This document shows, piece after piece, positions 336-54,196 of a DNA stretch of 64,000 bases. The position numbers and the translations under genes were made by a program. The first letter of the stretch is position 1, and each line of letters begins with the position of its first letter. This DNA comes from Glaciihabitans sp. (GTDB taxonomy: Bacteria; Actinomycetota; Actinomycetes; Actinomycetales; Microbacteriaceae), in contig JAODBD010000003.1 in NCBI GenBank assembly GCA_025463785.1, forward strand, positions 525,287 through 589,286, given 5' to 3'. The notes below the pieces were generated by a model. It did not search any database, was not told the DNA's origin, and worked only from the letters and a program-made list of their open reading frames with translations.

Positions 336-423
336 AGTATCTGATGACGCCGAACCCGTTCGCGTAGGCGCCAGCCACTCACGCAGCCCCCATCCACACC
401 GCATCCCACCCGTGCCCCGGGTT

Positions 424-505
424 GCATAACTCATGCCGATTGACGCCGGGAGGCCCGCGTCGCCGCGTGTCGCGGCAAAACCGTGGCAACTGTCAGGAGT
501 TATGC
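424..505. repeat. palindromic-terminus element, copy A1 (about 82 nt)
   Basis: Left arm GCATAACTC(ATGCC) at 424-437, right arm GAGTTATGC at 497-505 (exact reverse complements), and an internal conserved core GCGTGTCGC at 465-473. A C-rich tract (about 380-420) lies immediately to the left. Confidence 0.7.
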
Positions 506-606
506 GCGGCCGACGTCGACGGGTTGCGATGGTGACCGCGGCGCGCCAATCAGATCTCGGCCGGGCGACCGTGGGCTGGAATTCTGGCGCGGTCGAGTCG
601 GCCACC

Positions 607-692
607 GTGCATAACTCCGGCTAGTTTTGCTGCGGGAGGCTCTGCTGCCGCGTGTCGCAGGTGTTCCGTCGCGGATGACAGGAGTTATGCAC
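607..692. repeat. palindromic-terminus element, copy A2 (about 86 nt)
   Basis: GTGCATAACTCC at 607-618 and GGAGTTATGCAC at 681-692 form a 12 nt perfect inverted repeat. The core GCGTGTCGC lies at 650-658. The interior shares GGGAGGC...GCCGCGTGTCGC with copy A1. Confidence 0.7.
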
Positions 693-694
693 GT

Positions 695-796
695 GGGAGG
701 ACGGGCACGGCTGGGAGGACCGGGAGGACTGGCACGGCTGGGAGGACGGGCACGGCTGGGAGTACTGGGAGTACTGGGACTACCGGGAGGGACGGG
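695..796. repeat. 9-bp periodic G-rich tandem array (about 11 units, GGGAGGACN / GGCACGGCT / GGGAGTACT variants)
   Basis: Direct reading shows GGGAGGACG GGCACGGCT GGGAGGACC GGGAGGACT GGCACGGCT GGGAGGACG GGCACGGCT GGGAGTACT GGGAGTACT GGGACTACC GGGAGGGAC. The array ends at the trmH-family ATG (797). Confidence 0.8.
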
Positions 797-1675: not shown

Positions 1676-3532
1676 TCAGACGAGCAGCTGGTGCTTCGCG
1701 AGTTCACGGTAGAGCGGCGTCGATGCGACCAGCTCGGAGTGGGTGCCGACGCCGACCACGAGGCCGTGGTCGAGCACCACGATTTGGTCGGAGTCGACGA
1801 CGGTCGAGAGGCGATGCGCGATGACGATCAGGGTGCGATTCTCGGCGACCGCATCGATGGCCTCCCGAAGCAGCTGCTCGTTGAGCCCGTCGAGCGACGA
1901 CGTCGACTCGTCCAGCAGCAGGATGGGCGGAGCCGACAACAGGGTTCGCGCGATCGCCAGGCGCTGGCGCTCGCCACCGGAAAGCATGATGCCGTCCTCG
2001 CCGACCTCGGCATCGAGCCCGAGTTCGTTGCGCTCGAGGACCTCGGTCAGGTTGACGGCGTGCAAAACCGAAATGCACTGCTGGTCGGTCGCGTCGGGCG
2101 AGCCGAGCGTCAGGTTTTGGCGGATTGTCCCGGCCAGAACAGGCGCATCCTGCTCGACGTAGCCGATCTGTGCGCGCAGCGCAGTGCGATCGAGGGCACG
2201 GATGTCGACGCCGCCCAGTCGCACCACGCCGGCGGTCGGGTCGTAGAATCGCTCGATCAGGGCAAGGATCGTGCTCTTCCCGGCGCCGGATGGCCCTACC
2301 AGCGCGGTGCGCTTGCCGTGCGGAACCGTGAACGAGACGCCGTGCAGCACCGTGAGATCGTGGGCAGGGAGGGCGTCGGGAGCGACCTCGGCGATGGCCT
2401 TCTCGGTCTCCGACTTGTGCGCCTTCTCTGGGTAGGTGAAGACGACGTTCTCGAAGCTGACAGCGGCGTCCTGTTCGATGGCGGCGACCGGGGCGACGCC
2501 GGCATCCGGCTCGGATTCGCTCGGCAGGTCGATGATCTCCTGGATGCGACCGAGTGCGCCGAGCGCCTGGCTCACCGAAGTGACGGCCCCGAACGCGGAG
2601 CCGAGCGGCGCGATCATGGTGAACAGCAGGATGATGAACGCGATGAGTGAGGCGATCGACAGCGCGCCACTCGCCACGCGGAAACCACCGACACCGAGGA
2701 CGACCAGCACGGAAACCTGGAGCGCAACACCCGCAATCGGCACGACCAGCGCCGAAACCTTCGCGACCTTGATGCCCATCGTCCAGGCGCCCTGCGCGTC
2801 CTCCTGCACGGCGTCGATCTCACGCTCGGTCGCGTTCGACGCGCGAATGGTGCGGATGGCGCCGAGCGCCCGCGAGACACTCGCGGCCAGCTCGCCAACC
2901 TTGGTTTGTTGGGCCTGGCTTGCGAGCCGAATGCGCCCGGACAGCGTGCCGACGCCCACGATCGACACCCCGATCACGAGCACTGTGAGCCCGAGCAGGA
3001 TCGGGTCGATGAACGCCATTGCGATGAGCGAGCCGATGAACTGCAACGCCCCACCGATCGAGTCGATGAGGCCCTGCGTCATGACCGAGTAGAGCAACGT
3101 TGTGTCGGAGCCGACACGGGAAACCAGGTCACCCGTGCGGCGCGTGTCGAACTCGCTGATCGGCAGCCCGAGCAGTCGTCGGATGAGTCGCTTGCGCACC
3201 GACAGCACAACGGTCGTTCCCATGCGCTGCAACAGGTAGTGCTGCACGCCGCTGATGAGGGCGGATGCCACCAGCAGGATGATCACGGTGGCCGCGATCC
3301 ACCCCCACGGCTGCTTCGCCTGGAACACGGTGATGCCCTGCCGAACCAGCAACGGCTGTGCAACGGTCGTGAGCGAACCGATCACGCTGAGGATCACGAC
3401 GACCGCGACCATCGCCTTGTTCTGCAGCAAATAGGGGAGCAGCTGGCTGAATTTCGCCCGCGGTCCCTCGCTCGACTTGCCGCGACCGAAGAGGCCGCGC
3501 CGCGCTGGCGCCGCCTGGGTATCTGTGCTCAT
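1676..3532 (-). CDS. ABC transporter, fused permease/ATP-binding protein (MsbA/multidrug-exporter type)
   Basis: The ORF is 1676..3649; the internal ATG at 3532 (MSTDTQAAP...) was chosen as start. It has six N-terminal TM segments, Walker A GPSGAGKST, the signature LSGGERQR and Walker B ILLLDE. Confidence 0.88.
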   Translation of the reverse strand: MSTDTQAAPARRGLFGRGKSSEGPRAKFSQLLPYLLQNKAMVAVVVILSVIGSLTTVAQPLLVRQGITVFQAKQPWGWIAATVIILLVASALISGVQHYLLQRMGTTVVLSVRKRLIRRLLGLPISEFDTRRTGDLVSRVGSDTTLLYSVMTQGLIDSIGGALQFIGSLIAMAFIDPILLGLTVLVIGVSIVGVGTLSGRIRLASQAQQTKVGELAASVSRALGAIRTIRASNATEREIDAVQEDAQGAWTMGIKVAKVSALVVPIAGVALQVSVLVVLGVGGFRVASGALSIASLIAFIILLFTMIAPLGSAFGAVTSVSQALGALGRIQEIIDLPSESEPDAGVAPVAAIEQDAAVSFENVVFTYPEKAHKSETEKAIAEVAPDALPAHDLTVLHGVSFTVPHGKRTALVGPSGAGKSTILALIERFYDPTAGVVRLGGVDIRALDRTALRAQIGYVEQDAPVLAGTIRQNLTLGSPDATDQQCISVLHAVNLTEVLERNELGLDAEVGEDGIMLSGGERQRLAIARTLLSAPPILLLDESTSSLDGLNEQLLREAIDAVAENRTLIVIAHRLSTVVDSDQIVVLDHGLVVGVGTHSELVASTPLYRELAKHQLLV

Positions 3533-3642
3533 GGGATCAGCTTCGTCCGTACTTCTTGTGAACTGCCTGTTTGGATACGACGCGGATGCGCGCTTTCCGC
3601 GGCAATCCGGCGGGTCAGTCGTCTGGTCTAGGCTCTTATCCC

Positions 3643-4569
3643 GTGCCACAAGCCGTGATTACAGCATCGTCGCTGACCAAGAAGTATAAGGATTTTGTCG
3701 CCGTCGACGGAATCTCGTTCGAGGTTGCGCCCGGCGAATCCTTCGGGCTCCTCGGGCCGAACGGTGCTGGCAAGTCCACCACGATGCGCATGGTCGGCGC
3801 CGTGTCGACGCGGACGAGTGGCGATCTCAGCATCCTGGGTCTCGACCCCAATGACCACGGCCCTGAGATCCGGTCGCAGCTGGGTGTCGTTCCCCAGCAG
3901 GACAACCTCGACCAGGAGCTTCGGGTTCGCGACAACCTCATCGTGTACGGCCGCTACTTCGGCATCCCGGCCAGGCAGGTCGCCAGGCGTGCCGATGAGC
4001 TGCTCGAGTTCGCGCAACTCACCGATCGGGCGAAGTCGCGGGTGGACGACCTCTCCGGGGGGATGAAGCGGCGGCTCACGATCGCGCGCGCTCTCGTGAA
4101 TGACCCCCGCATCCTGTTGCTCGACGAGCCGACGACGGGGCTCGACCCGCAGGCTCGGCACATTCTGTGGGATCGCCTGTTTCGGTTGAAAGAACAGGGC
4201 ACGACCCTCGTACTCACGACGCACTACATGGACGAGGCAGAGCAGCTCTGCGACCGGATCGTGGTCGTCGACAAGGGCGCAATCATGGCCGAAGGATCGC
4301 CGGCCGCGCTGATCAAGCAGTACTCGACCCGCGAGGTTGTTGAGGTGCGCTTCGGATCGGACCGCAATGCCCAGGTCGCCACACAGCTCGACGGGATTGG
4401 CGAACGCAGCGAGGTGCTGCCCGACCGCATCCTGATTTACAGCGACAATGGCGAGGCCGCTCTCACGAGGATCGTTGAGCGCGGCCTCAGCCCGATGACG
4501 AGCCTCGTGCGCCGGTCGAGCCTCGAGGATGTATTCCTTCGGCTGACCGGTCGGAGCCTGATCGAATGA
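3643..4569 (+). CDS. ABC transporter ATP-binding protein (DrrA/NodI-like, ABC-2 exporter ATPase)
   Basis: Walker A GPNGAGKST, signature LSGGMKRR and Walker B LLLDEPT. The start is uncertain: GTG 3643 or GTG 3655, while the ORF is open from 3571. Confidence 0.88.
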   Translation: MPQAVITASSLTKKYKDFVAVDGISFEVAPGESFGLLGPNGAGKSTTMRMVGAVSTRTSGDLSILGLDPNDHGPEIRSQLGVVPQQDNLDQELRVRDNLIVYGRYFGIPARQVARRADELLEFAQLTDRAKSRVDDLSGGMKRRLTIARALVNDPRILLLDEPTTGLDPQARHILWDRLFRLKEQGTTLVLTTHYMDEAEQLCDRIVVVDKGAIMAEGSPAALIKQYSTREVVEVRFGSDRNAQVATQLDGIGERSEVLPDRILIYSDNGEAALTRIVERGLSPMTSLVRRSSLEDVFLRLTGRSLIE

Positions 4570-5384
4570 CCACGGCAGTGGAGCGCGACGCCATCATCGC
4601 GGCCGGCAGCAAGCCGCGCCGGTGGGGGTCGTTCTATGTCGCTGAGCACCGTATCCGTTCCATGCGCGCATACCTTCAGACGCTCGTCGTCACCAGCTTT
4701 GGCAACCCGCTGGTGTACCTCTTCGGCCTTGGCGTCGGCCTCGCGCGCCTGGTGCCGACCGAGATCGGACACGCGACCTACCTCGAGTTCGTCGCACCCG
4801 CACTGCTCGCTTCGGCTGCGGTGACCGTGGCGGCGGAGGAGTGCACCTACCCCGTGCTGATGGGCTTCAAGTGGAATCCCATCTTCTACGCCATGAACGC
4901 TGCGCCCATCTCTGGCACGCAGATCGTCAACGGCCTGGTGCTCGCCGTTGGGGTGCGTATGCTGCCGACCGTCGGCATCTACTTCGTGTTCATGCTGCTG
5001 TTCGGGGCGGTGCCCAGCGCGCTCGGTGTGCTCGGCATCCTCATCGCCGTTTTTACCGGGATGTCCGTCGGCCTGCTGATCATGGCCTACACCTCGACGA
5101 TAGTTGAGGATCGCGGCCAGATGGCCCTCATCCAGCGCTTCGGAATCATGCCGATGTTCCTCTTCTCGGGTACGTTCTTCCCGATCACCCAGCTGCCGGT
5201 CTACCTGCAATGGATCGGCTGGATCTCGCCGCTCTGGCACGGCACGCAGCTCGGGCGGGATGCCAGCTACGGGCAAAGCGAACCAGTCTGGCTCATCGCG
5301 GTCCACATCGCGTACCCGCTCGCGCTCGGTGCCTTCGGCTGGTGGTCGACGGCCCGCACCGTGACGAGGAGGTTGAACGCATGA
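4566..5384 (+). CDS. ABC-2 type transporter permease
   Basis: 272 aa polytopic membrane protein. Its ATG overlaps the ATPase stop (ATGA). Confidence 0.85.
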   Translation: MTTAVERDAIIAAGSKPRRWGSFYVAEHRIRSMRAYLQTLVVTSFGNPLVYLFGLGVGLARLVPTEIGHATYLEFVAPALLASAAVTVAAEECTYPVLMGFKWNPIFYAMNAAPISGTQIVNGLVLAVGVRMLPTVGIYFVFMLLFGAVPSALGVLGILIAVFTGMSVGLLIMAYTSTIVEDRGQMALIQRFGIMPMFLFSGTFFPITQLPVYLQWIGWISPLWHGTQLGRDASYGQSEPVWLIAVHIAYPLALGAFGWWSTARTVTRRLNA

Positions 5385-6217
5385 CGACAACGCCAGCCGC
5401 GCCCAGCACGTTCACGCCGCCGTCGCGCGGGCGGTTGCTCGGCTCGATCTATGCGGGCAACTCGCGCGCCGTTCTCGGTCGCGGCCTTCTCGCAACGCGT
5501 ACCTCCAACTATTGGATCATCCTCAGCGGCTTCTTCGAGCCCGTGTTCTACCTGTTGTCGCTCGGTATTGGGCTCGGGTCACTCATCCACGGCGTGACTA
5601 CGACGACGGGGCAGGTGGTCTCGTACCAGGCGTACATCGCGCCTGCGCTGTTGGCGGTTTCGGCCATGAATGGCGCCATCTACGACTCCACGTGGAACGT
5701 CTTCTTCAAGATGAACTACGCGAAGCTGTACGAGGGGATGCTGGCGACATCCATTGGTCCCTTCGATGTCGCGCTCGGCGAAATTGCGTTCGCTCTGCTG
5801 CGCGGGCTGCTGTACGCCATCGGATTCATGGTCGTCATGCAGGTGTTCGGGCTGAACCTCGCCTGGACCGCGCTCCTCGCCCTGCCCGCAGTTCTGCTCA
5901 TCGCCTTCGGCTTCGCCAGCCTCGGGATGGCCGTGACAAGTTACATGAAAACCTTCCAGCAGATGGACTGGATCAACTTCGTGATGCTGCCGATGTTCAT
6001 CTTTTCGGCGACGTTCTACCCGATCACGGTCTACCCGCAGGCTATCCAGTACATCATCGAGGTGCTGCCGCTCTGGCACGGGGTCGAACTCGTGCGGGGG
6101 CTGACGACGGGGTCACTCAGCTGGGGGCTTCTCTGGCACGTGCTGTATTTTGCGGTGATGATCACAATCGGACTGATCTTCACGACCAAGCGGCTCAAGG
6201 CGCTGTTTCTCAACTGA
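5381..6217 (+). CDS. ABC-2 type transporter permease (second subunit)
   Basis: The internal ATG at 5381 (MTTTPAAPS...) overlaps the previous stop (ATGA). The protein is polytopic and paralogous to the preceding permease. Confidence 0.85.
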   Translation: MTTTPAAPSTFTPPSRGRLLGSIYAGNSRAVLGRGLLATRTSNYWIILSGFFEPVFYLLSLGIGLGSLIHGVTTTTGQVVSYQAYIAPALLAVSAMNGAIYDSTWNVFFKMNYAKLYEGMLATSIGPFDVALGEIAFALLRGLLYAIGFMVVMQVFGLNLAWTALLALPAVLLIAFGFASLGMAVTSYMKTFQQMDWINFVMLPMFIFSATFYPITVYPQAIQYIIEVLPLWHGVELVRGLTTGSLSWGLLWHVLYFAVMITIGLIFTTKRLKALFLN

Positions 6218-7914: not shown

Positions 7915-8406
7915 CTACTGGTGAACCGCGCCACCGCGGCGGAGTGACCGCAACAGGACGGCCGTCGCGACGGCGGCCTCTGCGGCCTCTTCGCCCTTGT
8001 CTTCCTTTGAGCCGGGGAGACCTGCCCGGTCGAGACCCTGCTGCTCGTCATCGAGGGTGAGCAGCCCGAAGCCGATGGGCTTGCCCGTCGCGATCGAGAC
8101 CTCGGTGAGGCCGCTGGTTGCGGCATCCGACACGTACTCGAAGTGCGGGGTGCCTCCACGGATTATGACGCCGAGGGCGACCACGGCATCCGCCCCTGCT
8201 TCCAGCACCGCCTTCGAGACCACGGGCAGTTCGAAGCTGCCAGGCACGCGCACTTCGGTCACCTCGACGTTGGATGCGGCGAGCGCACGGTGGGCGCCGG
8301 CGAGCAGTCCGTTCGAGATCTCTTCGTGCCATTGGCCGGCGACGATCGTCACCTTGAGTCCGGTGCCGTCGGTGTGCTGGATGCTGGGTGCGCCCGAGCC
8401 GCTCAT
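7915..8406 (-). CDS. ribH: 6,7-dimethyl-8-ribityllumazine synthase
   Basis: 163 aa with VPGSFELP and IRGGTPHFEYV motifs. It is the last gene of the rib operon. Confidence 0.93.
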   Translation of the reverse strand: MSGSGAPSIQHTDGTGLKVTIVAGQWHEEISNGLLAGAHRALAASNVEVTEVRVPGSFELPVVSKAVLEAGADAVVALGVIIRGGTPHFEYVSDAATSGLTEVSIATGKPIGFGLLTLDDEQQGLDRAGLPGSKEDKGEEAAEAAVATAVLLRSLRRGGAVHQ

Positions 8407-9689
8407 TCTGTGGATCCCTTCTGGTTCGCCAGCACTTTGCCGTCGAGGGTGTCATTGTCTGGAAGAACGTGGCCCATGCGGTCACGCTTCGCTTCGAGGT
8501 ACTTTTCGTTGAACTCGCCGACGCCGACGACGAGCGGCACGCGGTCGATTACCTTGATGCCGCGCTCCTTCAGCTGGCGCAGTTTCTCAGGGTTGTTTGT
8601 GATCGCCCGAACCTCAGAGATGCCGAGATCCTCAAGGATGGCGACGGCGGCCCCATAATCGCGCCCATCTGCCGGGAATCCCAGCGCCAGGTTCGCGTCC
8701 AGGGTGTCGAGGCCGTCCTCCTGGAGGCGGTAGGCCTTCAGCTTGTTGATGAGGCCGATGCCGCGACCCTCGTGGCCGCGCATGTAGATGACGATGCCGC
8801 CCTCTTGCTGGATGGCGTCGAGCGCGGCGTCGAGCTGTGGGCCGCACTCACACTTCTCCGAGGCGAACACCTCACCCGTCAGGCACTCGGAGTGCACGCG
8901 CATGAGTGTGCCGTTGGTGGGGTTGCCCGAGATGATCGCGAGGTGATCTGCTCCGGTCTGGCGGTCGCGGTATGCCCGGAAGCGGAACGCGCCATGCTCG
9001 GTCGGCACAGTCGTCTCGACCTCGAAGATCACGCGCGAGGATTCCGGAATCTCGACGGAGAGCGGAACATCGGTATCGCAGTGCCATTCCTGCAGGTACT
9101 CGATGAGGGCGCCAACGGTCGTGACGACGAGTTCTTCGCGCTCACCAAATTCGATGAGCTGGGGCAGTCGCATCATCTCGCCGTCATCGCCGACAATCTC
9201 GCCGATCGCTCCGACCGGGATGAGGTCGGCCAGCTTGAGCAGGTCGACCGCCGCCTCGGTGTGGCCGCCTCGCGAACGCACTCCGCCATCCACCGCCCGA
9301 AGGGGGAGGATGTGGCCCGGCCGGTTGAGGCTCGCCGGCGTCGACTCCATGCTGGCCAGTACGCGCAGGGTATGCGCCCGGTCGGCAGCGCTAATGCCGG
9401 TGCTGAGGCGATCGGCCGCGTCAACCGTGACCGTGTACGCGGTGCCCAACGGATCCTGGTTGTCGAGCACCATGAGCGGAAGCTCGAGGCGATCGGCGAT
9501 CTCGTGCGTCATGGGGGCACAAATGAAACCGGAGGTGTGACGGATCATGAACGCCAGCCACTCCTGCGTCGCGAACTGGGCGGCGATGATGAGGTCGCCC
9601 TCATTTTCGCGGCTCTCGTTGTCGACCACGATGACTGGCCGACCCTCGCTGAGTGCTGCCAGGGCTGTGGGGATGTCGGCGAGACTCAT
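8403..9689 (-). CDS. ribBA: bifunctional 3,4-dihydroxy-2-butanone-4-phosphate synthase / GTP cyclohydrolase II
   Basis: 428 aa. The N-terminal DHBP synthase part carries DNESRENEGDL and the C-terminal GCHII part carries HSECLTGEVF...CECG. Confidence 0.93.
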   Translation of the reverse strand: MSLADIPTALAALSEGRPVIVVDNESRENEGDLIIAAQFATQEWLAFMIRHTSGFICAPMTHEIADRLELPLMVLDNQDPLGTAYTVTVDAADRLSTGISAADRAHTLRVLASMESTPASLNRPGHILPLRAVDGGVRSRGGHTEAAVDLLKLADLIPVGAIGEIVGDDGEMMRLPQLIEFGEREELVVTTVGALIEYLQEWHCDTDVPLSVEIPESSRVIFEVETTVPTEHGAFRFRAYRDRQTGADHLAIISGNPTNGTLMRVHSECLTGEVFASEKCECGPQLDAALDAIQQEGGIVIYMRGHEGRGIGLINKLKAYRLQEDGLDTLDANLALGFPADGRDYGAAVAILEDLGISEVRAITNNPEKLRQLKERGIKVIDRVPLVVGVGEFNEKYLEAKRDRMGHVLPDNDTLDGKVLANQKGSTE

Positions 9690-10354
9690 GACTCGCTCCT
9701 CTCGTTTGAGATTGAAAACCCGATAGGTGTGCGGGGATCGCGGATGGAGCTGGGCTCGTCATCCGCACCGAACTGGATGAGACGCTGAACCTGCCTCGCG
9801 AGGATGTCGGTCTCGATGTTGACCCGGTCGCCGACAACCTTGCTTCCGAGGGTCGTCGCCTCGAGGGTTTCGGGGATGAGCGAAACCTCGAACCAGTCGC
9901 CGCCGACGGCGCTGACCGTGAGCGAGATTCCATCGATCGCGATGGAGCCCTTCCGCGTGACGAGTGGGGCGTGCTCGGCATCGAGGCTGAGGCGCACGAC
10001 GCGCCAGGCGCTGCCATCCTCGATGCGCAGGATGCCGCTGGTGCCGTCGATGTGACCCTGCACGATGTGGCCGCCGATGCGGTCGCCCACCTTCGCGGCG
10101 CGCTCGAGGTTCACCCGGGTACCGGGTGTGAGCCCCGAAAGCGTGCTGGCGGCGATCGACTCGGCCATGACGTCCGCGGTGAACCAGTCGTCGCCCTGGT
10201 CGATGACCGTGAGGCAGACGCCGCTGACCGAGATCGAGTCGCCGTGTTTGGCGTCAGAGACCGCAATGGGTGCCTTGACGGTGACGCGGGCGGCGTCGGC
10301 CGTTTGCTCCCAGGCGATGATCTCGCCGAGTTCTTCGATGATTCCGGTGAACAT
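9686..10354 (-). CDS. ribE: riboflavin synthase alpha chain
   Basis: MFTGIIEELG... with the duplicated lumazine-binding repeat (GDSISVSGVCLTV / GSIAIDGISLTV). Confidence 0.92.
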   Translation of the reverse strand: MFTGIIEELGEIIAWEQTADAARVTVKAPIAVSDAKHGDSISVSGVCLTVIDQGDDWFTADVMAESIAASTLSGLTPGTRVNLERAAKVGDRIGGHIVQGHIDGTSGILRIEDGSAWRVVRLSLDAEHAPLVTRKGSIAIDGISLTVSAVGGDWFEVSLIPETLEATTLGSKVVGDRVNIETDILARQVQRLIQFGADDEPSSIRDPRTPIGFSISNERSES

Positions 10355-10356
10355 GG

Positions 10357-11451
10357 CTATGCTCCTGTTCTCTCGTTGGCTTTGCGGCGCGCAGAGGCGC
10401 GAGTATCGAGCCCAGCCCCGCCGCGCACCGGCCGTGCCGTGAGTAAAAGATCGCCGCCCAGCTGCTCGACGCTTCGGACATCCAACCTCTTGATGCCGGG
10501 CATGCTCGTTACGCCGATGTCGCCGATCGCGAGCTTGTCGCCGCCCAGCAGTGTCGGCGAGAGGTAGATGGCGTACTCGTCGACCAGGTCTTCTGCGACG
10601 AGGGCGCTTACCAGCGTCGGGCCACCCTCGACGAAGGCGCGACGGATGCCGCGATCAAACAGCGCGCCGAGGATCGCGGGCAGATCCCGGCTCGCCGTCT
10701 CGATCAGGCCGGCCGGGTGTCGCCGGAGTTTCGCAGCCGCCGGGATTGCACGCTCACCGACGACAACGGGAACCGGCTGGTGCTCCATGAGCTCGCCGGC
10801 ATCCCCGCGTGCTGTCAGCGACGGATCGTCGGCGAAGACAGTGCCGGTGCCGACCAGGATGGCATCGTTCGCGGCGCGCTGCTCGTGCACCCGCTGGCGG
10901 GCGGCCGTGCCGGTGATCCACTGGCTGGAACCGTCTGCTGCTGCGGCACGGCCGTCGAGCGTCGATGCCCACTTCACTGTGACGTAGGCGCGGCGAAGGC
11001 GGGTCGAGGTGAGCCAGACGCGGAGGAACTCTGTCGCCTCATCGGCGAGCAGGCTACCCGTGACGGTGACGCCCGCCTCGGCCAGGCGCTCGGCGCCGCC
11101 GCGAGCAAGCAGGCCCGGGTCGCTGACGGCGAAGAAGACCTCGTGGATGCCGGCGGCGATCAGCGCCTCGGAGCACGGCCCCGTACGCCCGGTGTGATTG
11201 CACGGCTCGAGCGTCACCACGGCGGTGAGGCCGCGCGCGTCCGGGCGGCCGTCGACCTGGGGGAGTTGGGAAAGGGCATCCACCTCGGCGTGTGCTGTTC
11301 CGGCGCCGCGGTGCCAGCCCTCGGCGACCGTATTGCCGTCGGAGTCGAGGATGACGCAGCCGACCTGCGGGTTGTCGCCGGTTGCCGGGCCGCGCGACGC
11401 GAGATCGAGGCCGTGGCGCATCGCCTGCTCGAGTTGCTGTCGTTCGATCAT
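10357..11451 (-). CDS. ribD: bifunctional diaminohydroxyphosphoribosylaminopyrimidine deaminase / 5-amino-6-(5-phosphoribosylamino)uracil reductase
   Basis: Deaminase zinc motif HAEV...LEPCNHTGRTGPC plus a C-terminal reductase domain. The internal ATG at 11451 (MIERQQ) was chosen because it lies 5 nt after a GAGGA Shine-Dalgarno sequence. Confidence 0.9.
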   Translation of the reverse strand: MIERQQLEQAMRHGLDLASRGPATGDNPQVGCVILDSDGNTVAEGWHRGAGTAHAEVDALSQLPQVDGRPDARGLTAVVTLEPCNHTGRTGPCSEALIAAGIHEVFFAVSDPGLLARGGAERLAEAGVTVTGSLLADEATEFLRVWLTSTRLRRAYVTVKWASTLDGRAAAADGSSQWITGTAARQRVHEQRAANDAILVGTGTVFADDPSLTARGDAGELMEHQPVPVVVGERAIPAAAKLRRHPAGLIETASRDLPAILGALFDRGIRRAFVEGGPTLVSALVAEDLVDEYAIYLSPTLLGGDKLAIGDIGVTSMPGIKRLDVRSVEQLGGDLLLTARPVRGGAGLDTRASARRKANERTGA

Positions 11452-11454
11452 CCG

Positions 11455-11650
11455 GTCCTCAGTTCTGAGGCTCCGGGGATTGGTCGTGTGAGACCTGGTG
11501 CGTGGCGACGCCAAACACCGTGTGCTGCCTCCCATCCGGACTTTAACCGTCGGTCTCGGAGTTTCACCGAGTCAACCGCGTCGACTTTCGTCTGGACGGC
11601 TCGTGGACTATCACCACCGGTTCGGACTCTCACCGACCCCGGAGCACGTT
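11455..11650 (-). ncRNA. FMN riboswitch (RFN element) with an SD-sequestering expression platform
   Basis: The minus strand reads GUGCUCCGGGGUCGGUGAGAGUCCGAACCGGUGGUGAUAGUCCACGA...GGUGAAACUCCGAGACCGACGGUUAAAGUCCGGAUGGGAGGCAGCAC, which matches the conserved RFN core. The downstream hairpin CCUCAGAACUGAGG (plus-strand 11457-11470) includes the ribD SD. Confidence 0.92.
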
Positions 11651-11695: not shown

Positions 11696-11745
11696 ACCGC
11701 CGCCCACCCGCCCCGCCGCCCACCTCCCGTCCCGCGCCGCCATCC
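11696..11745. repeat. C-rich low-complexity tract (G-rich on the minus strand)
   Basis: CACCGCCGCCCACCCGCCCCGCCGCCCACCTCCCGTCCCGCGCCGCC. It is approximately inverted with respect to the G-rich tract at 12968-13085. Confidence 0.7.
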
Positions 11746-11748
11746 GCT

Positions 11749-11828
11749 CGTAACTCATGCTGCGCCGCGCCGCGGGGTCTCCTTACCGGCGTGTTGCATC
11801 CAGCTGCCAGCTCGTGGCATGAGTTACG
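11749..11828. repeat. palindromic-terminus element, copy B1 (about 80 nt)
   Basis: CGTAACTCATGC at 11749-11760 and GCATGAGTTACG at 11817-11828 form a 12 nt perfect inverted repeat. The core GGCGTGTTGC lies at 11788-11797. Confidence 0.7.
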
Positions 11829-11938
11829 CACGCCAGCGCCGCGCGCGACCTCTCCTCGGCAGGGTGCCGATAGCCGGGAGTTTTCACAGAAACGGCCTCG
11901 GGTCGTTCCGGTGGCGCTATGCAAGGAACGATTTTGGG

Positions 11939-12802
11939 ATGGCGTGGGCAGAGACGTTCGAATCCGTCGGCCTGGTGATCGCCAGCCGGAACGAGCTTGT
12001 CAGCTGCGGCGCGCGACCGCGGAGCCTCACGGCGGCCGTGCGAAACAACTATCTGATCAGAGTGCGTCGCGATCACTACGCGCTGCCGGGCACCGCAGAA
12101 GACATCGTTCAGGCCGTACGCGTGGGTGGCAAGATTGCCTGCGTCACGGTGCTCGCACGTGCCGGGATTTTCGTCTTCGACGCGACGTTCCCCCATGCTC
12201 ACCTTCGCAAGGCCGCGTCGCGGAGCCGGTCGCCACGTAATCGATTCGTCCCATTGACGGTCGACAACCGCGACGGCGTGGAGTTGCACTGGGTTCCCCT
12301 CGCAGAGCCCGAGCGCGCGAATGAGTTTTCGGTGGGGCTGCGCGACGCGCTGATCCAGGCGGTTCGATGCCAGCATCCATGGATGGCGGTTGCCTCGCTC
12401 GACAACGCCCTCTACCTTGGCCTCGTCGACCGGGGCGACATCCGTTACATCTTTCAGCAGCTGGGTGCGAAGTATTCGTACCTCGAGAAGCGGCTCAACG
12501 GTCGGAGCGAGTCCGGCCAGGAGTCGGTGCTGCGAATGATCCTGGACGAATTGGGGCTCGACTACGAGATCCAGGTGACCTTCCCGGGCATCGGACGAGT
12601 CGACTTTCTCGTCGAGAATCGCTTGGTGGTCGAGGCCGACAGTCGGGTGGCTCACGATGGGTGGGAACTCCACGTCCGCGATCGTGATCGCGACATCGAC
12701 CTGGCGCGACGCCACCTTATGAGCATCCGCCCCGCTTATCGGCGCACCATGTTCGCGCCGGATGACGTTCGGGATGCGATCCTCGGTCTTCTGACGGCTT
12801 AA
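11939..12802 (+). CDS. wHTH (AbiEi_4-like N-terminus) + DUF559/Vsr-like PD-(D/E)xK-fold protein
   Basis: The internal ATG at 11939 (MAWAETFES...) was chosen as start. The N-terminus reads L..CGARPRSLTAAVRNNYLIRVRRDHYALPG and the C-terminus reads SESGQESVLRMIL..LGL....QV..PGIGRVDFLVENRLVVEADSRVAH. The start is uncertain because the ORF is open from 11498. Confidence 0.7.
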   Translation: MAWAETFESVGLVIASRNELVSCGARPRSLTAAVRNNYLIRVRRDHYALPGTAEDIVQAVRVGGKIACVTVLARAGIFVFDATFPHAHLRKAASRSRSPRNRFVPLTVDNRDGVELHWVPLAEPERANEFSVGLRDALIQAVRCQHPWMAVASLDNALYLGLVDRGDIRYIFQQLGAKYSYLEKRLNGRSESGQESVLRMILDELGLDYEIQVTFPGIGRVDFLVENRLVVEADSRVAHDGWELHVRDRDRDIDLARRHLMSIRPAYRRTMFAPDDVRDAILGLLTA

Positions 12803-12874
12803 CCAGGGCTCTCGGGGCTGGCTTGCCTGTGGCTGTTCCGCGGGCGTTCGCGCCGCCGGATGGTTCCCGCGCGC

Positions 12875-12955
12875 GCATAACTCATGCCGCTCTGGTGATT
12901 TGCTCGGCAACACGCCGCCAGACAGCCCATTCGACCGTTGTCAGCATGAGTTGCG
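12875..12955. repeat. palindromic-terminus element, copy B2 (about 81 nt, inverted relative to B1)
   Basis: GCATAACTCATGC at 12875-12887 and GCATGAGTTGCG at 12944-12955. The core lies on the opposite strand (GCAACACGCC at 12907-16). Confidence 0.7.
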
Positions 12956-12967
12956 AACCACACAACC

Positions 12968-13085
12968 CGGGCGCGGTGGCGGGGCGGGGCGGCGGGTGTG
13001 GGGCAGTGGGCCGGCGCCGGGGCCGGGGCCCGGGGCCGGGGCCCGCGGCCGGGACCGTGCCGGTGGCGGGGCGGCGCGCGCGGGC
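12968..13085. repeat. G-rich low-complexity tract with (GGGGCC)n-like runs
   Basis: GGTGGCGGGGCGGGGCGGCGGGTGTGGGGCAGTGGGCCGGCGCCGGGGCCGGGGCCCGGGGCCGGGGCCC... It has many runs of 4 or more G. Confidence 0.75.
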
Positions 13086-13086
13086 G

Positions 13087-13806
13087 CTACAGCGCCGCGA
13101 GGAGCGGCGGCAGTTCGGCCAGCGTCGTGATCGTGTGGACTCCGGATGCCGCTGCCGAGCGAACCTCTTCGGCCGAAGCCGCTCCACCGCGGTTGACCCA
13201 CACGCCCGCAAGCCCCGCGGCGGCCGCGCCGATCGCGTCGGTGTTGAGCCGATCACCCACGTACGCAGCGGAAGCGGGAGACACGCCGAACAGGTCGCAC
13301 GCGTGCAGGAAAATGCTCGGGTCGGGCTTCACGGCACCGAAATCGCCCGATGTCACGATGTGCTCGAACCACGGTGTAAGCCCGAGCACATCGAGCTTGG
13401 GCTGCTGAAAGTGGGTAACCCCGTTCGTGATAATCCCGAGCCGCAAACCGCGGAGCGCCGCGAGCATGGGCACCGCGTCGTCGTGCAGCGTCCACGCCGC
13501 GCGATAGTGCGCCAGGTAGTCCTCGAACCAGGTCTCGGCCGCGAGGTTGTCGGCAAAAGTGATTCCGTACGGTTCCATGAAGTCTCGCGCGCGGGCGTGA
13601 CGCTGGCCCAAATAGTCGAGTTCGCCGCCCAGATACCGCGTGTAGTGCTTCTCTTCGAGCGCGGTCCACCGTGTGGCCTCGGCGCCCTCATCGAACGGAC
13701 CCGGCAGTTCGGTGAGCGATTTCAGGTGCGCAACCACCCCATCCTCAACTGCCCGCCGGTGGGCGAAAAGCGTATCGTCGAGGTCGAAGAGCACTACGGA
13801 GATCAC
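13087..13806 (-). CDS. HAD-superfamily hydrolase (subfamily IA)
   Basis: Motif I is VLFDLDDTLF, followed by GIITNG and the motif IV region YVGDRLNTDAIGAAAAG. GTG 13806 was chosen as start, although the ORF is open to 13854. Confidence 0.8.
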   Translation of the reverse strand: MISVVLFDLDDTLFAHRRAVEDGVVAHLKSLTELPGPFDEGAEATRWTALEEKHYTRYLGGELDYLGQRHARARDFMEPYGITFADNLAAETWFEDYLAHYRAAWTLHDDAVPMLAALRGLRLGIITNGVTHFQQPKLDVLGLTPWFEHIVTSGDFGAVKPDPSIFLHACDLFGVSPASAAYVGDRLNTDAIGAAAAGLAGVWVNRGGAASAEEVRSAAASGVHTITTLAELPPLLAAL

Positions 13807-13839
13807 GTCACTATCTTGGCCCGTGGAGGATGAGTGGAT

Positions 13840-14649
13840 ATGACCAGACCGCACGATGACGGCAGCGCCGGCGATGTCGACTACGCGAACCTGGCATCCG
13901 GTTATCTAAATTACCGCCGACCGGATTTCAGAATCCAGCTCCAAATCGACCGTGCGCTTGGCGATGCCTTCACCGTGCTCAACGTCGGTGCAGGCGCGGG
14001 GGGATATGAGCCCGCCCAGTGCGATGTCACGGCGGTCGAGCCATCGGCATCCATGCGGGCTCAGCGGCGGTCGGCGAAACCGGCGATCGATGCGACAGCA
14101 GAAACGCTTCCCTTCGCGGACGCGAGCTTCGACGCGAGTATGTCGACGATGTCTGTGCACCAGTGGCCGGATCTCGAGGCCGGGCTTGCGAACATGCGGC
14201 GTGTCACGAAGGGTTCGGTGGTGATCATGACCGCTGACCCTGCGCTCGTCGAGCGGTTCTGGCTGAACGACTACGCGCCAGAGGTCATGTCGACGGAGGC
14301 TCGTCGATTTCCGGCGATCGACCGCGTCGCGAACGCGCTCGGTGGCGAAATCGCCGTCGAGGTGGTGCACATACCACTTGACTGCACCGACGGATTCAAC
14401 CAGGCGTACTACGGCCGCCCGGAGGTGCTGCTCGACGGCGGCGCGAGGCGCGCGAACTCGGCGTGGAGTTTTGTCGGACCCGAGGTCGAAGATCGTTTCG
14501 TACACGACCTTCGGGTCGATCTCGCTTCGGGCGCATGGGATGAGAAGTACGGACACCTCCGCATCCTTCCGACCTTCGACGCGTCGCTCAGGCTGGTGGT
14601 TTCACGGCCGGCCACCCCGGCTGGGCTTCGCGCGAGTCGCTCGCGCTGA
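13840..14649 (+). CDS. class I SAM-dependent methyltransferase
   Basis: VLNVGAGAGGYE is the SAM-binding motif I. The ATG at 13840 lies 9 nt after a GGAGGA SD. The 3' end overlaps the convergent GNAT gene by 62 nt. Confidence 0.8.
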   Translation: MTRPHDDGSAGDVDYANLASGYLNYRRPDFRIQLQIDRALGDAFTVLNVGAGAGGYEPAQCDVTAVEPSASMRAQRRSAKPAIDATAETLPFADASFDASMSTMSVHQWPDLEAGLANMRRVTKGSVVIMTADPALVERFWLNDYAPEVMSTEARRFPAIDRVANALGGEIAVEVVHIPLDCTDGFNQAYYGRPEVLLDGGARRANSAWSFVGPEVEDRFVHDLRVDLASGAWDEKYGHLRILPTFDASLRLVVSRPATPAGLRASRSR

Positions 14650-53920: not shown

Positions 53921-54026
53921 CCCTCGGCGGGTCACTCGCCAATGTGATGGGTCGACCGGCGCCGCCCGCCGCGCGCCGCGCCGCGCGCCCGCCGCCCGCC
54001 GCCCGCCGCACCAGCGTGTGCGCGTA

Positions 54027-54080
54027 GGTTTGTCGTGAGCGCTGACGTGTGTACAGGCGCGCTCGCGGCGAAACACCGCG
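54027..54080. repeat. 54-nt direct repeat, left copy
   Basis: GGTTTGTCGTGAGCGCTGACGTGTGTACAGGCGCGCTCGCGGCGAAACACCGCG. 41 of 54 positions are identical, ungapped, to 55250-55303 (hand count). A C-rich tract (53958-54012) precedes it. Confidence 0.75.
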
Positions 54081-54196
54081 CCACTCACAACGGGACCCCG
54101 CTGCGCCAGTCCTCACCAGCGGAAGTCCGCAGTCATCCATCCCCAGTTCCCGCTGTTGGCATAACCCTGATCCGATTGATTCGGGATGCTGAATCC

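Follow-up and report, generated by a model that had tools for sequence, protein, structure and literature searches.

We analysed a gene at 11939-12802 (gene X, or geneX) in a 64,000-nucleotide stretch of a Glaciihabitans genome, referred to here as the window, together with the two hairpin elements that enclose it. An initial annotation of this DNA had described the unit as a gene for a winged helix-turn-helix (wHTH) and Vsr/DUF559-type protein, set in a symmetric bracket of hairpins and C- or G-rich tracts, and had proposed that it was a self-mobilising or homing cassette. When the sequence was re-read, all the listed features were present at their coordinates and the anatomy of the unit was borne out. 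The proposed mobility was not, as the same gene, with the same flanks, was found at the same position in 17 out of 17 relatives across several genera, an outcome that the initial annotation had itself named as speaking against it. The bracket itself proved to be a property of the gene, recurring at nearly all of these 17 orthologous loci and at the four other loci held by paralogues. The explanation that we favour, with moderate confidence and on the strength of comparative analysis, is that gene X would be a domesticated, vertically inherited nuclease paired with a cognate family of palindromic repeats, working like the repetitive extragenic palindromic (REP) sequences and their REP-associated tyrosine transposases (RAYT).

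Hairpin elements flank gene X

The unit is composed of the following features:

11939..12802, plus strand: gene X, with its ATG at 11939 and its stop codon ending at 12802, 287 amino acids (aa)
11745..11836, plus strand: upstream hairpin element, arms at 11749-11760 (CGTAACTCATGC) and 11817-11828 (GCATGAGTTACG), central motif GGCGTGTTGC
12867..12962, minus strand: downstream hairpin element, arms at 12879-12887 (AACTCATGC) and 12944-12952 (GCATGAGTT), inverted with respect to the upstream copy by the central motif
11696..11745, plus strand: C-rich low-complexity tract (68% C) on the outer side of the upstream hairpin, of a length that differs between strains
12968..13085, plus strand: G-rich low-complexity tract (62% G, GGGGCC-type repeats) on the outer side of the downstream hairpin, of a length that differs between strains

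Each flanking element is about 80 nucleotides (nt) long and carries its own terminal inverted repeat. The window contains the pattern AACTCATGC-N50-75-GCATGAGTT two times, 100 shuffled sequences contained it not once, and the upstream element folds with a long basal stem (z -2.7). The two copies had been annotated as inverted relative to each other. This stands by virtue of a common 10-nt central motif, from which alone the orientation follows, but the interiors are otherwise no more alike than shuffled sequences (identity 0.58 versus 0.56 +/- 0.05). When Rfam was searched at gathering thresholds, the sole match was a flavin mononucleotide (FMN) riboswitch, and the hairpins were covered by no known RNA family.

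The bracket is conserved around orthologues

Scanning one genome per species yielded 17 loci encoding a relative of gene X, which come from Lacisediminihabitans, Salinibacterium, Rhodoglobus, Leifsonia-like and other metagenome-assembled genomes. The bracket was sought at these loci by inverted-repeat detection alone. Nearly all of the 17 carried hairpins of 65-100 nt with arms of the form AACTC(C/A)(T/G)GC...GC(A/C)(G/T)GAGTT, situated upstream of the gene, downstream of it or on both sides. The end of one hairpin precedes the start codon by about 85 nt, the next hairpin starts about 45 nt past the stop codon, and a tandem double hairpin was present upstream of the gene at L002, L004, L005 and L011. 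In the approximately 187 kb surrounding the 17 orthologues, the hairpin element was not found away from gene X.

Each genome has one arm variant, found upstream and downstream alike, and the variants differ between genomes. CATG arms were observed in the window, at L007 and, for the upstream copy, at L018, the relative whose protein is 91% identical to that of gene X. CAGG arms were present at L003, L010 and L017, CACAAC arms at L006 and GATAAC arms at L008 and L013; in L017 a 19-nt arm, GTGAAGAACTCAGGCAG (GAAGAACTCAGGCAG), is present both upstream and downstream. Within genomes, the identity between upstream and downstream arms was 0.82, compared with 0.70 +/- 0.02 after permutation, and none of 5000 permutations reached 0.82. 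This excess over independent descent indicates that the two flanks evolve in concert. Such concerted arms may arise by gene conversion, by turnover or through a common recognising protein.

Paralogues at other loci have hairpins of their own

Two more distant groups of the family were also sampled, namely members from the Microbacterium clade and a paralogue designated X2. The Microbacterium-clade genes occupy three places, and lineage-specific arms on a common theme were found at all three:

DUF445 / gene / acyl-CoA dehydrogenase (L139, L143): arm GCGCTCTCAGGAAGA (GCTCTCAGGA), upstream and downstream in L139
Glutamate dehydrogenase (GluDH) / gene (L140, L142): arm GGAATTCAGGCA, two in tandem upstream in L140
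Adenosine deaminase / gene / abhydrolase (L141): arms GAACTCCTC...GAGGAGTTC, two upstream and one downstream

Paralogue X2, a DUF559/MTES_1575 protein of about 288 aa, is encoded between dapD and the citrate synthase gene in four genera (hosts Lacisediminihabitans FW035, Cryobacterium mesophilum, Rhodoglobus and Protaetiibacter larvae), at the following positions:

L144, 8001-8867: X2
L146, 8001-8870: X2
L147, 5001-5870: X2
L148, 5001-5861: X2

Hairpins of 82-87 nt flank X2 on both sides, and their arms correspond to the 14-nt half-site of gene X in flipped orientation, GAAATGCAGGAGTT...AACTCCTGCATTTC. Lacisediminihabitans FW035 has both genes, a gene X orthologue with CATAACTCCTGCA-type hairpins and X2 with hairpins of the flipped type. 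Like gene X, X2 is single-copy, vertically inherited and constant in position. X2-type hairpins also occur away from X2, at L054, L081 and L103. Members of the family are thus held at five separate, syntenically conserved loci, with hairpins at all five.

A short motif upstream of the gene is shared as well:

11884..11892, plus strand: TCACAGAAA, the window form of TCCACAGAT, about 56 nt before the gene X start codon

Orthologues and paralogues (L002, L003, L005, L012, L016, L140, L141, L144 and L146) keep the motif TCCACAGAT about 56 nt ahead of the start codon. It may be a promoter or operator element, perhaps shared across the groups. A simple sigma-70 scan gave no match at 11884-11892, and a promoter and terminator scan of the locus yielded nothing informative.

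Gene X is a fixed chromosomal gene

The genes next to the unit in the window are:

11520-11649, minus strand: FMN riboswitch (Rfam RF00050, 93 bits)
8403-11535, minus strand: ribBA, ribE and ribD, to the left of gene X, with the FMN riboswitch as leader
13087-13854, minus strand: HAD hydrolase gene (PF00702, E 9e-31), to the right of gene X and convergent with it

These Rfam and Pfam matches confirmed the annotated placement of the unit between the rib leader and the HAD gene, beyond which the window holds genes for a methyltransferase and a GNAT protein, and trpS. At all 17 orthologous loci, gene X lies directly upstream of HAD and/or GNAT and trpS and is oriented as it is in the window. The ribD-ribE-ribBA genes are upstream of it at 13 of the 17, in four of these after an insert of about 3.5 kb; at two loci the upstream genes are different ones (an ABC transporter in L006), and the remaining two contigs are too short to tell. 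The insert separates the rib leader from the upstream hairpin in L001, L002, L005 and L011 (about 2500-5900), which are of the Lacisediminihabitans type, and also in L145 (4877-7611). In L002 and L145 it contains a SorC/DeoR-type regulator and glycerol-3-phosphate dehydrogenase. The presence of this insert on the rib side indicates that the left border of the module is plastic and that the trpS side is fixed.

Across the 17 loci, gene X shows 51-61% identity, which falls within the range of its neighbours (ribD 62-70%, HAD 50-65%, GNAT 33-53%). The window derives from a soil metagenome, and strain variants with 98-99% identity, found in other sequencing runs, had the same arrangement. No homologue of gene X was found in the phage collection searched, and the plasmid collection gave distant matches only, of 30-36% identity, in three Tsukamurella plasmid records. 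In the source metagenome there was neither extra read depth over the element nor any near-identical extra copy, and no paralogue of gene X was present in the 64-kb window. The gene is intergenic and does not lie within a host gene, an intron or an intein, and a Pfam scan of homologues revealed no transposase domain in the protein.

A comparison of empty and occupied sites had been proposed as a check on mobility. No clean empty site was found in an all-against-all comparison of element flanks or when the contigs of four sequencing runs were aligned with the locus. One contig of the source metagenome (run X1, depth about 87) joins the riboswitch end at 11650 to the HAD gene at 13217, skipping 1566 nt. 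This junction is not interpretable as an empty site, because it is supported only by patches of about 32 nt from a diverged organism. The locus is constant, the gene is present there in a single copy, and the arrangement is the same in the strain variants. As the gene also has a host-like base composition and is under purifying selection (see below), an actively moving or homing element is very unlikely. From the sequence comparison, the unit is in this clade a fixed, selected chromosomal module. It has nevertheless relocated in deep time, since family members sit at different loci in different lineages.

The protein is a predicted DNA-binding nuclease

The gene X protein contains GRVDFLVENRLVVEADSRVAH. 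Searched against Pfam and NCBIfam it gave no match even at E<=10, and none against PADLOC either. As the window protein itself lacks a Pfam or NCBIfam match, the wHTH and nuclease domain call of the initial annotation was confirmed indirectly, through homologues, a family profile and a structural model. The search for homologues returned 323 proteins, the best being 91% identical and the others at most 61%; the named sources are all Microbacteriaceae (Glaciihabitans, Salinibacterium, Lacisediminihabitans and Galbitalea). Among 50 aligned homologues, 21 matched PF18741 (MTES_1575), 17 PF04480 (DUF559) and 12 PF13338 (AbiEi_4). The family profile matched the DUF559 structure PDB 3hrl (NGO0050) with E=0.004, the VD...EAD of this structure aligning with VDF...VVEAD in the protein.

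An AlphaFold model built from the alignment had a pLDDT of 94 and a pTM of 0.89. In Foldseek searches, the first ~200 residues of this model matched the AbiEi antitoxin 6y8q_A (E 5e-4, probability 1.00). The last ~90 residues matched Vsr (1cw0/1vsr), the homing endonuclease I-Bth0305I (3r3p) and 3hrl, all with probability 1.00, with a TM-score of 0.75 normalised to 3r3p and to 3hrl and a root-mean-square deviation of 2.6-2.9; TnsA was matched weakly by the same domain. Together with the Pfam matches of the homologues, these results define two domains:

Residues ~1-200: AbiEi-like winged-helix DNA-binding part
Residues ~205-287: Vsr/DUF559/MTES_1575-type PD-(D/E)xK nuclease domain

Conservation of the catalytic residues had been suggested as a further check. 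The D...ExD...H motif (D222/E232/D234/H239) was unchanged across the 50 homologues and aligns with VDF...EADG in 3hrl, and the complete set of invariant positions was G219 R220 V221 D222, E232, D234, S235, H239, W242, D248, R249, R251, D252 and R264. Comparison with L018 gave a synonymous divergence (dS) of 0.38 and a nonsynonymous divergence (dN) of 0.043, hence a dN/dS of 0.11, indicative of purifying selection. The GC content of gene X at the three codon positions (0.70/0.44/0.77) was like that of its neighbours. On the basis of the invariant residues, the dN/dS ratio and the host-like codon-position GC, gene X appears to encode a maintained DNA-binding nuclease that is probably active.

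A profile search of 1.84 billion cluster representatives retrieved 4841 at E<=1e-3 and 709 at E<=1e-30, the best 150 being mostly of about 290 aa. Proteins of the wHTH-DUF559 architecture are annotated unevenly, as 'very-short-patch-repair endonuclease', 'AbiEi antitoxin domain protein' or hypothetical.

The hairpins belong to a dispersed repeat family

The 80-nt element is not confined to the cassette. A metagenome scan with the pattern TAACTCCTGC-N50-80-GCAGGAGTTA found it at no fewer than 120 loci, as a dispersed intergenic repeat. Among the loci listed (L019-L138), gene X was detected at seven (L025, L043, L070, L077, L091, L096 and L135); the contig of L058 has the trpS/GNAT flank, ends before gene X and looks gene X-linked. 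No distant paralogue of gene X was found beside the dispersed elements in the 120 metagenome loci listed. These loci contained 129 distinct copies, mostly intergenic, with 43 between tandem, 23 between convergent and 10 between divergent genes; a crude gene caller placed a further 10 'inside' a gene. Copies remain at orthologous positions despite divergence of their flanks to 75-90%.

The arms of the dispersed copies are conserved over about 20-24 nt (consensus GCGCATAACTCCTGCAATTTG), and, apart from a small apical hairpin, the interiors have only weak structure (mean z -1). The elements fall into length classes of 73-77, 84-88 and 96-100 nt with none between, and measure about 64 nt in L015 and L016. 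The steps between classes, about 11 nt, are close to one helical turn. Two dispersed copies are present in the window:

418..513, plus strand: dispersed element copy, preceded by a C-rich stretch (380-420) and upstream of a SpoU/TrmH-like gene (797-1588)
603..698, plus strand: second dispersed element copy, in tandem with the first

The copy upstream of the TrmH-like gene also exists in the relative L035 (1537-1622), where it is single. The tandem pair in the window thus shows that local copy number varies.

Some further observations were made on individual sites. At L103, four elements of two types are found inside 1.3 kb. Comparison of the orthologous sites L138 (2994-4149) and L050 (1739-1825) revealed about 1.15 kb of AT-richer DNA beside the element in L138 only, and this site may be an insertion hot spot. 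Elsewhere in the window, an intergenic C-rich tract of GCCGCCC repeats at 53951-54010 is followed by an imperfect 23-nt inverted repeat at 54020-54081; no relation of this site to the hairpin family emerged.

C- and G-rich tracts accompany the elements

The base bias of the two tracts outside the gene X hairpins is reached at only five places in the 64 kb. The tracts had been described as approximately reverse-complementary. Their strand bias is real, but the complementarity between them (81% over 27 nt) is that expected of low-complexity C/G runs. Strains differ by an indel at 11706 in the C tract, where L018 is about 100 nt longer, and in the G tract by indels at 13029-13040 and by a 75-nt replacement in run X7. 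In relatives, the outer flanks are again C-rich on the 5' side and G- or purine-rich on the 3' side. The dispersed copies, too, tend to be C-rich on their 5' side and G-rich on their 3' side, with a mean skew of +0.10 +/- 0.016 on each side; strong skew was observed in 30% (5') and 22% (3') of them, versus 3-4% in the opposite sense. As the same skew surrounds the dispersed copies, the C and G tracts are part of the element family.

In many cases the tracts are genuine tandem repeats: L144 has about 12 repeats of an 18-nt unit, CCTCCGCCTGCTCTCGTA, and L002 has GGAGGA runs. The tracts are C-rich toward the 5' side of the gene and G- or purine-rich toward its 3' side:

L144, 7570-7800 and 9000-9100: tandem-repeat tracts
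L002, 7225-7290: tandem-repeat tract
L005, 5560-5625: tandem-repeat tract
L013, 5760-5825: tandem-repeat tract

A possible mode of action and its alternatives

If gene X is paired with these repeats, its cognate DNA would be the arm of the 65-100-nt palindromic intergenic elements, which is conserved over 14-20 bp (AACTCCTGCAWTT; in the present genome AACTCATGC). AbiEi proteins bind inverted repeats in their own promoters, and the AbiEi-like part of gene X would recognise and bind the hairpin arms. The length steps of about 11 nt would suit two duplex half-sites bound on one face of the helix. The Vsr-like domain would then nick or cleave at or beside the hairpin, and this cleavage could feed the slippage-prone C/G tracts, which could be the scars of repeated nick repair. 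The two copies flanking the gene might serve in autoregulation or insulation, or be the site of enzyme action in cis. A broader proposal, which we put forward only tentatively, is that Microbacteriaceae may possess a second, non-HUH class of repeat-associated enzymes, in which each wHTH/Vsr-like paralogue would recognise its own hairpin family and generate, maintain or process it.

Several observations weigh against the pairing. The interiors of the dispersed copies are nearly unconserved (identity 0.63 versus 0.57 for shuffled sequences); with interiors this close to random and no near-identical extra copies, there is no sign of recent replication, unlike in typical REPIN populations. Unrelated genes are bracketed too, namely a GntR/FadR-like gene in L063 (285-1356) and an OsmC-like gene in L103 (1196-2483), and the window copies at 418-513 and 603-698 have CCKG/CAGG-like arms rather than the CATG arms that flank gene X. 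Duplication of the whole unit could explain the common bracket of the paralogues without continuing recognition. Finally, a full-text search of the DUF559 literature found no functional study of the wHTH-DUF559 architecture, in agreement with the earlier remark that it was functionally uncharacterised.

The first alternative, which we consider rather unlikely, is that gene X is an autoregulated DNA-binding factor whose wHTH binds inverted repeats near its own promoter. The downstream copy would then be a terminator or insulator, the dispersed hairpins would be operators, insulators or terminators organised by the protein, and the nuclease domain would have a separate role, for instance in repair, or be structural only. 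The resemblance of residues ~1-200 to the AbiEi antitoxin 6y8q and the AbiEi_4 matches in homologues are in keeping with such a factor, as are the constant spacing between upstream hairpin and start codon, the conserved motif at -56 and length steps that match the helical phasing of two duplex half-sites. Dispersed copies are also commoner between convergent than between divergent genes. However, the invariant D...ExD...H motif argues for an active nuclease, and the hypervariable C/G tracts are left unexplained by a pure regulator. This alternative overlaps in part with the pairing of nuclease and repeats and does not exclude it.

It is also conceivable, though unlikely, that gene and hairpins have no functional link, two generic REP-like terminators or structural repeats having landed beside an ancestral copy of the gene and then been inherited, along with gene duplicates carrying their flanks. 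The long persistence of the elements at orthologous sites and the bracketing of unrelated genes fit this view, and at least 112 of the 120 sampled loci have no tie to gene X. It does not account for the within-genome co-variation of the arms beyond independent descent, nor for hairpins being at all five family loci yet nowhere away from the gene in the surroundings of the 17 orthologues. The paralogue-specific hairpin geometry within the single genome of FW035 also speaks against it.

A currently active selfish cassette, be it a homing endonuclease or a transposon-like unit whose terminal inverted repeats are composite, is very improbable. The symmetric hairpin bracket, the likeness of the C-terminal domain to the I-Bth0305I catalytic domain and, weakly, to TnsA, and the past relocation implied by the different loci of the family had pointed in this direction. 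Against it stand the same locus in 17 related genomes and in strain variants, the single intergenic copy with no near-identical copies elsewhere, its host-like composition under strong purifying selection, and the lack of any match in the phage collection searched, with only distant ones in plasmid records. An AbiEi/AbiEii-type module (type IV toxin-antitoxin or abortive infection), or some other gene for defence against phages, deserves hardly any credence: names given in databases, for instance 'type IV toxin-antitoxin system AbiEi family antitoxin domain-containing protein' and weak AbiEi matches for homologues in PADLOC suggest it, but the window protein has no PADLOC match, no AbiEii nucleotidyltransferase gene was found among the neighbours in the window and the 17 relatives, and synteny in the core genome over several genera is unlike a defence island.

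Two other candidates were dropped. A Vsr/Dcm repair pairing lacks a cytosine methyltransferase partner among the neighbours. The hairpin arms end in ...TAAC / GTTA..., which may loosely resemble integron attC core sites; the attC reading was abandoned as there were no arrays and no integrase.

Comparison with known systems

RAYT genes are single-copy and vertically inherited and have REPs on their flanks, inverted relative to each other; a single genome can contain several such enzyme/repeat pairs (PMC3337134, PMC3116915, bioRxiv 10.1101/2021.07.10.451892). Gene X resembles the REP/REPIN-RAYT systems in being a single-copy, vertically inherited enzyme gene bracketed by a short palindromic repeat that is also dispersed between genes. 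As in those systems, the paralogues of one genome go with repeats of different types, and the repeats persist at orthologous sites. The enzymes differ, that of gene X being a wHTH plus Vsr/DUF559 PD-(D/E)xK protein and not an HUH/Y1 (IS200/IS605-like) transposase; for this reason we describe gene X as working like a REP/RAYT pair and not as a member of the class. Further differences are the host, here Actinomycetota (Microbacteriaceae) and there Proteobacteria, the form of the repeat, which is here a 65-100-nt hairpin with conserved arms, almost free interiors and C/G-rich tracts outside, and the lack here of recently replicated near-identical copies.

With the AbiEi antitoxins (S. agalactiae AbiEi, 6y8q; M. 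tuberculosis Rv2827c) gene X shares the fold of its N-terminal ~200 residues. It differs from them in having no AbiEii partner among its neighbours and an additional C-terminal nuclease domain, and its repeats are elements of 65-100 nt that flank the gene on either side and also occur at other places in the genome. The catalytic fold (TM 0.75 to 3hrl and 3r3p) and the D...ExD...H motif are those of the Vsr, DUF559 (PF04480) and MTES_1575 (PF18741) nucleases, but in gene X the nuclease is fused to an AbiEi-like part and falls below Pfam thresholds. Vsr moreover has a Dcm methyltransferase partner, which is missing among the neighbours of gene X, and I-Bth0305I, an EDxHD homing endonuclease, sits in an intron or intein, whereas gene X does not. 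Miniature inverted-repeat transposable elements (MITEs) with an autonomous partner are similar in that they, too, are short and have terminal inverted repeats around a variable interior. The present family differs from MITEs and from integron attC sites in that no transposase or integrase and no cassette arrays were seen, in that no target-site duplication could be demonstrated, and in that its copies are old and positionally stable.

Significance

Literature searches (DUF559, AbiEi with Vsr, REP with Microbacteriaceae) and Rfam gave no prior description of the link between gene and repeat or of the repeat family. The dispersed repeats of Microbacteriaceae matter for genome annotation, assembly and strain typing. 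Since wHTH-DUF559 proteins are common in Actinomycetota, their tie to a palindromic repeat with paralogue-specific geometry offers biochemical work a defined substrate. This tie further suggests that long-lived partnerships between an enzyme and a repeat, of which REP/RAYT is one, arose more than once, with unrelated catalytic chemistries. If Microbacteriaceae do possess a second class of repeat-associated enzymes, the REP/RAYT lifestyle would have been invented independently in Gram-positive bacteria, and the large 'AbiEi-DUF559' family of actinobacteria, with its 4841 cluster representatives, would gain a function.

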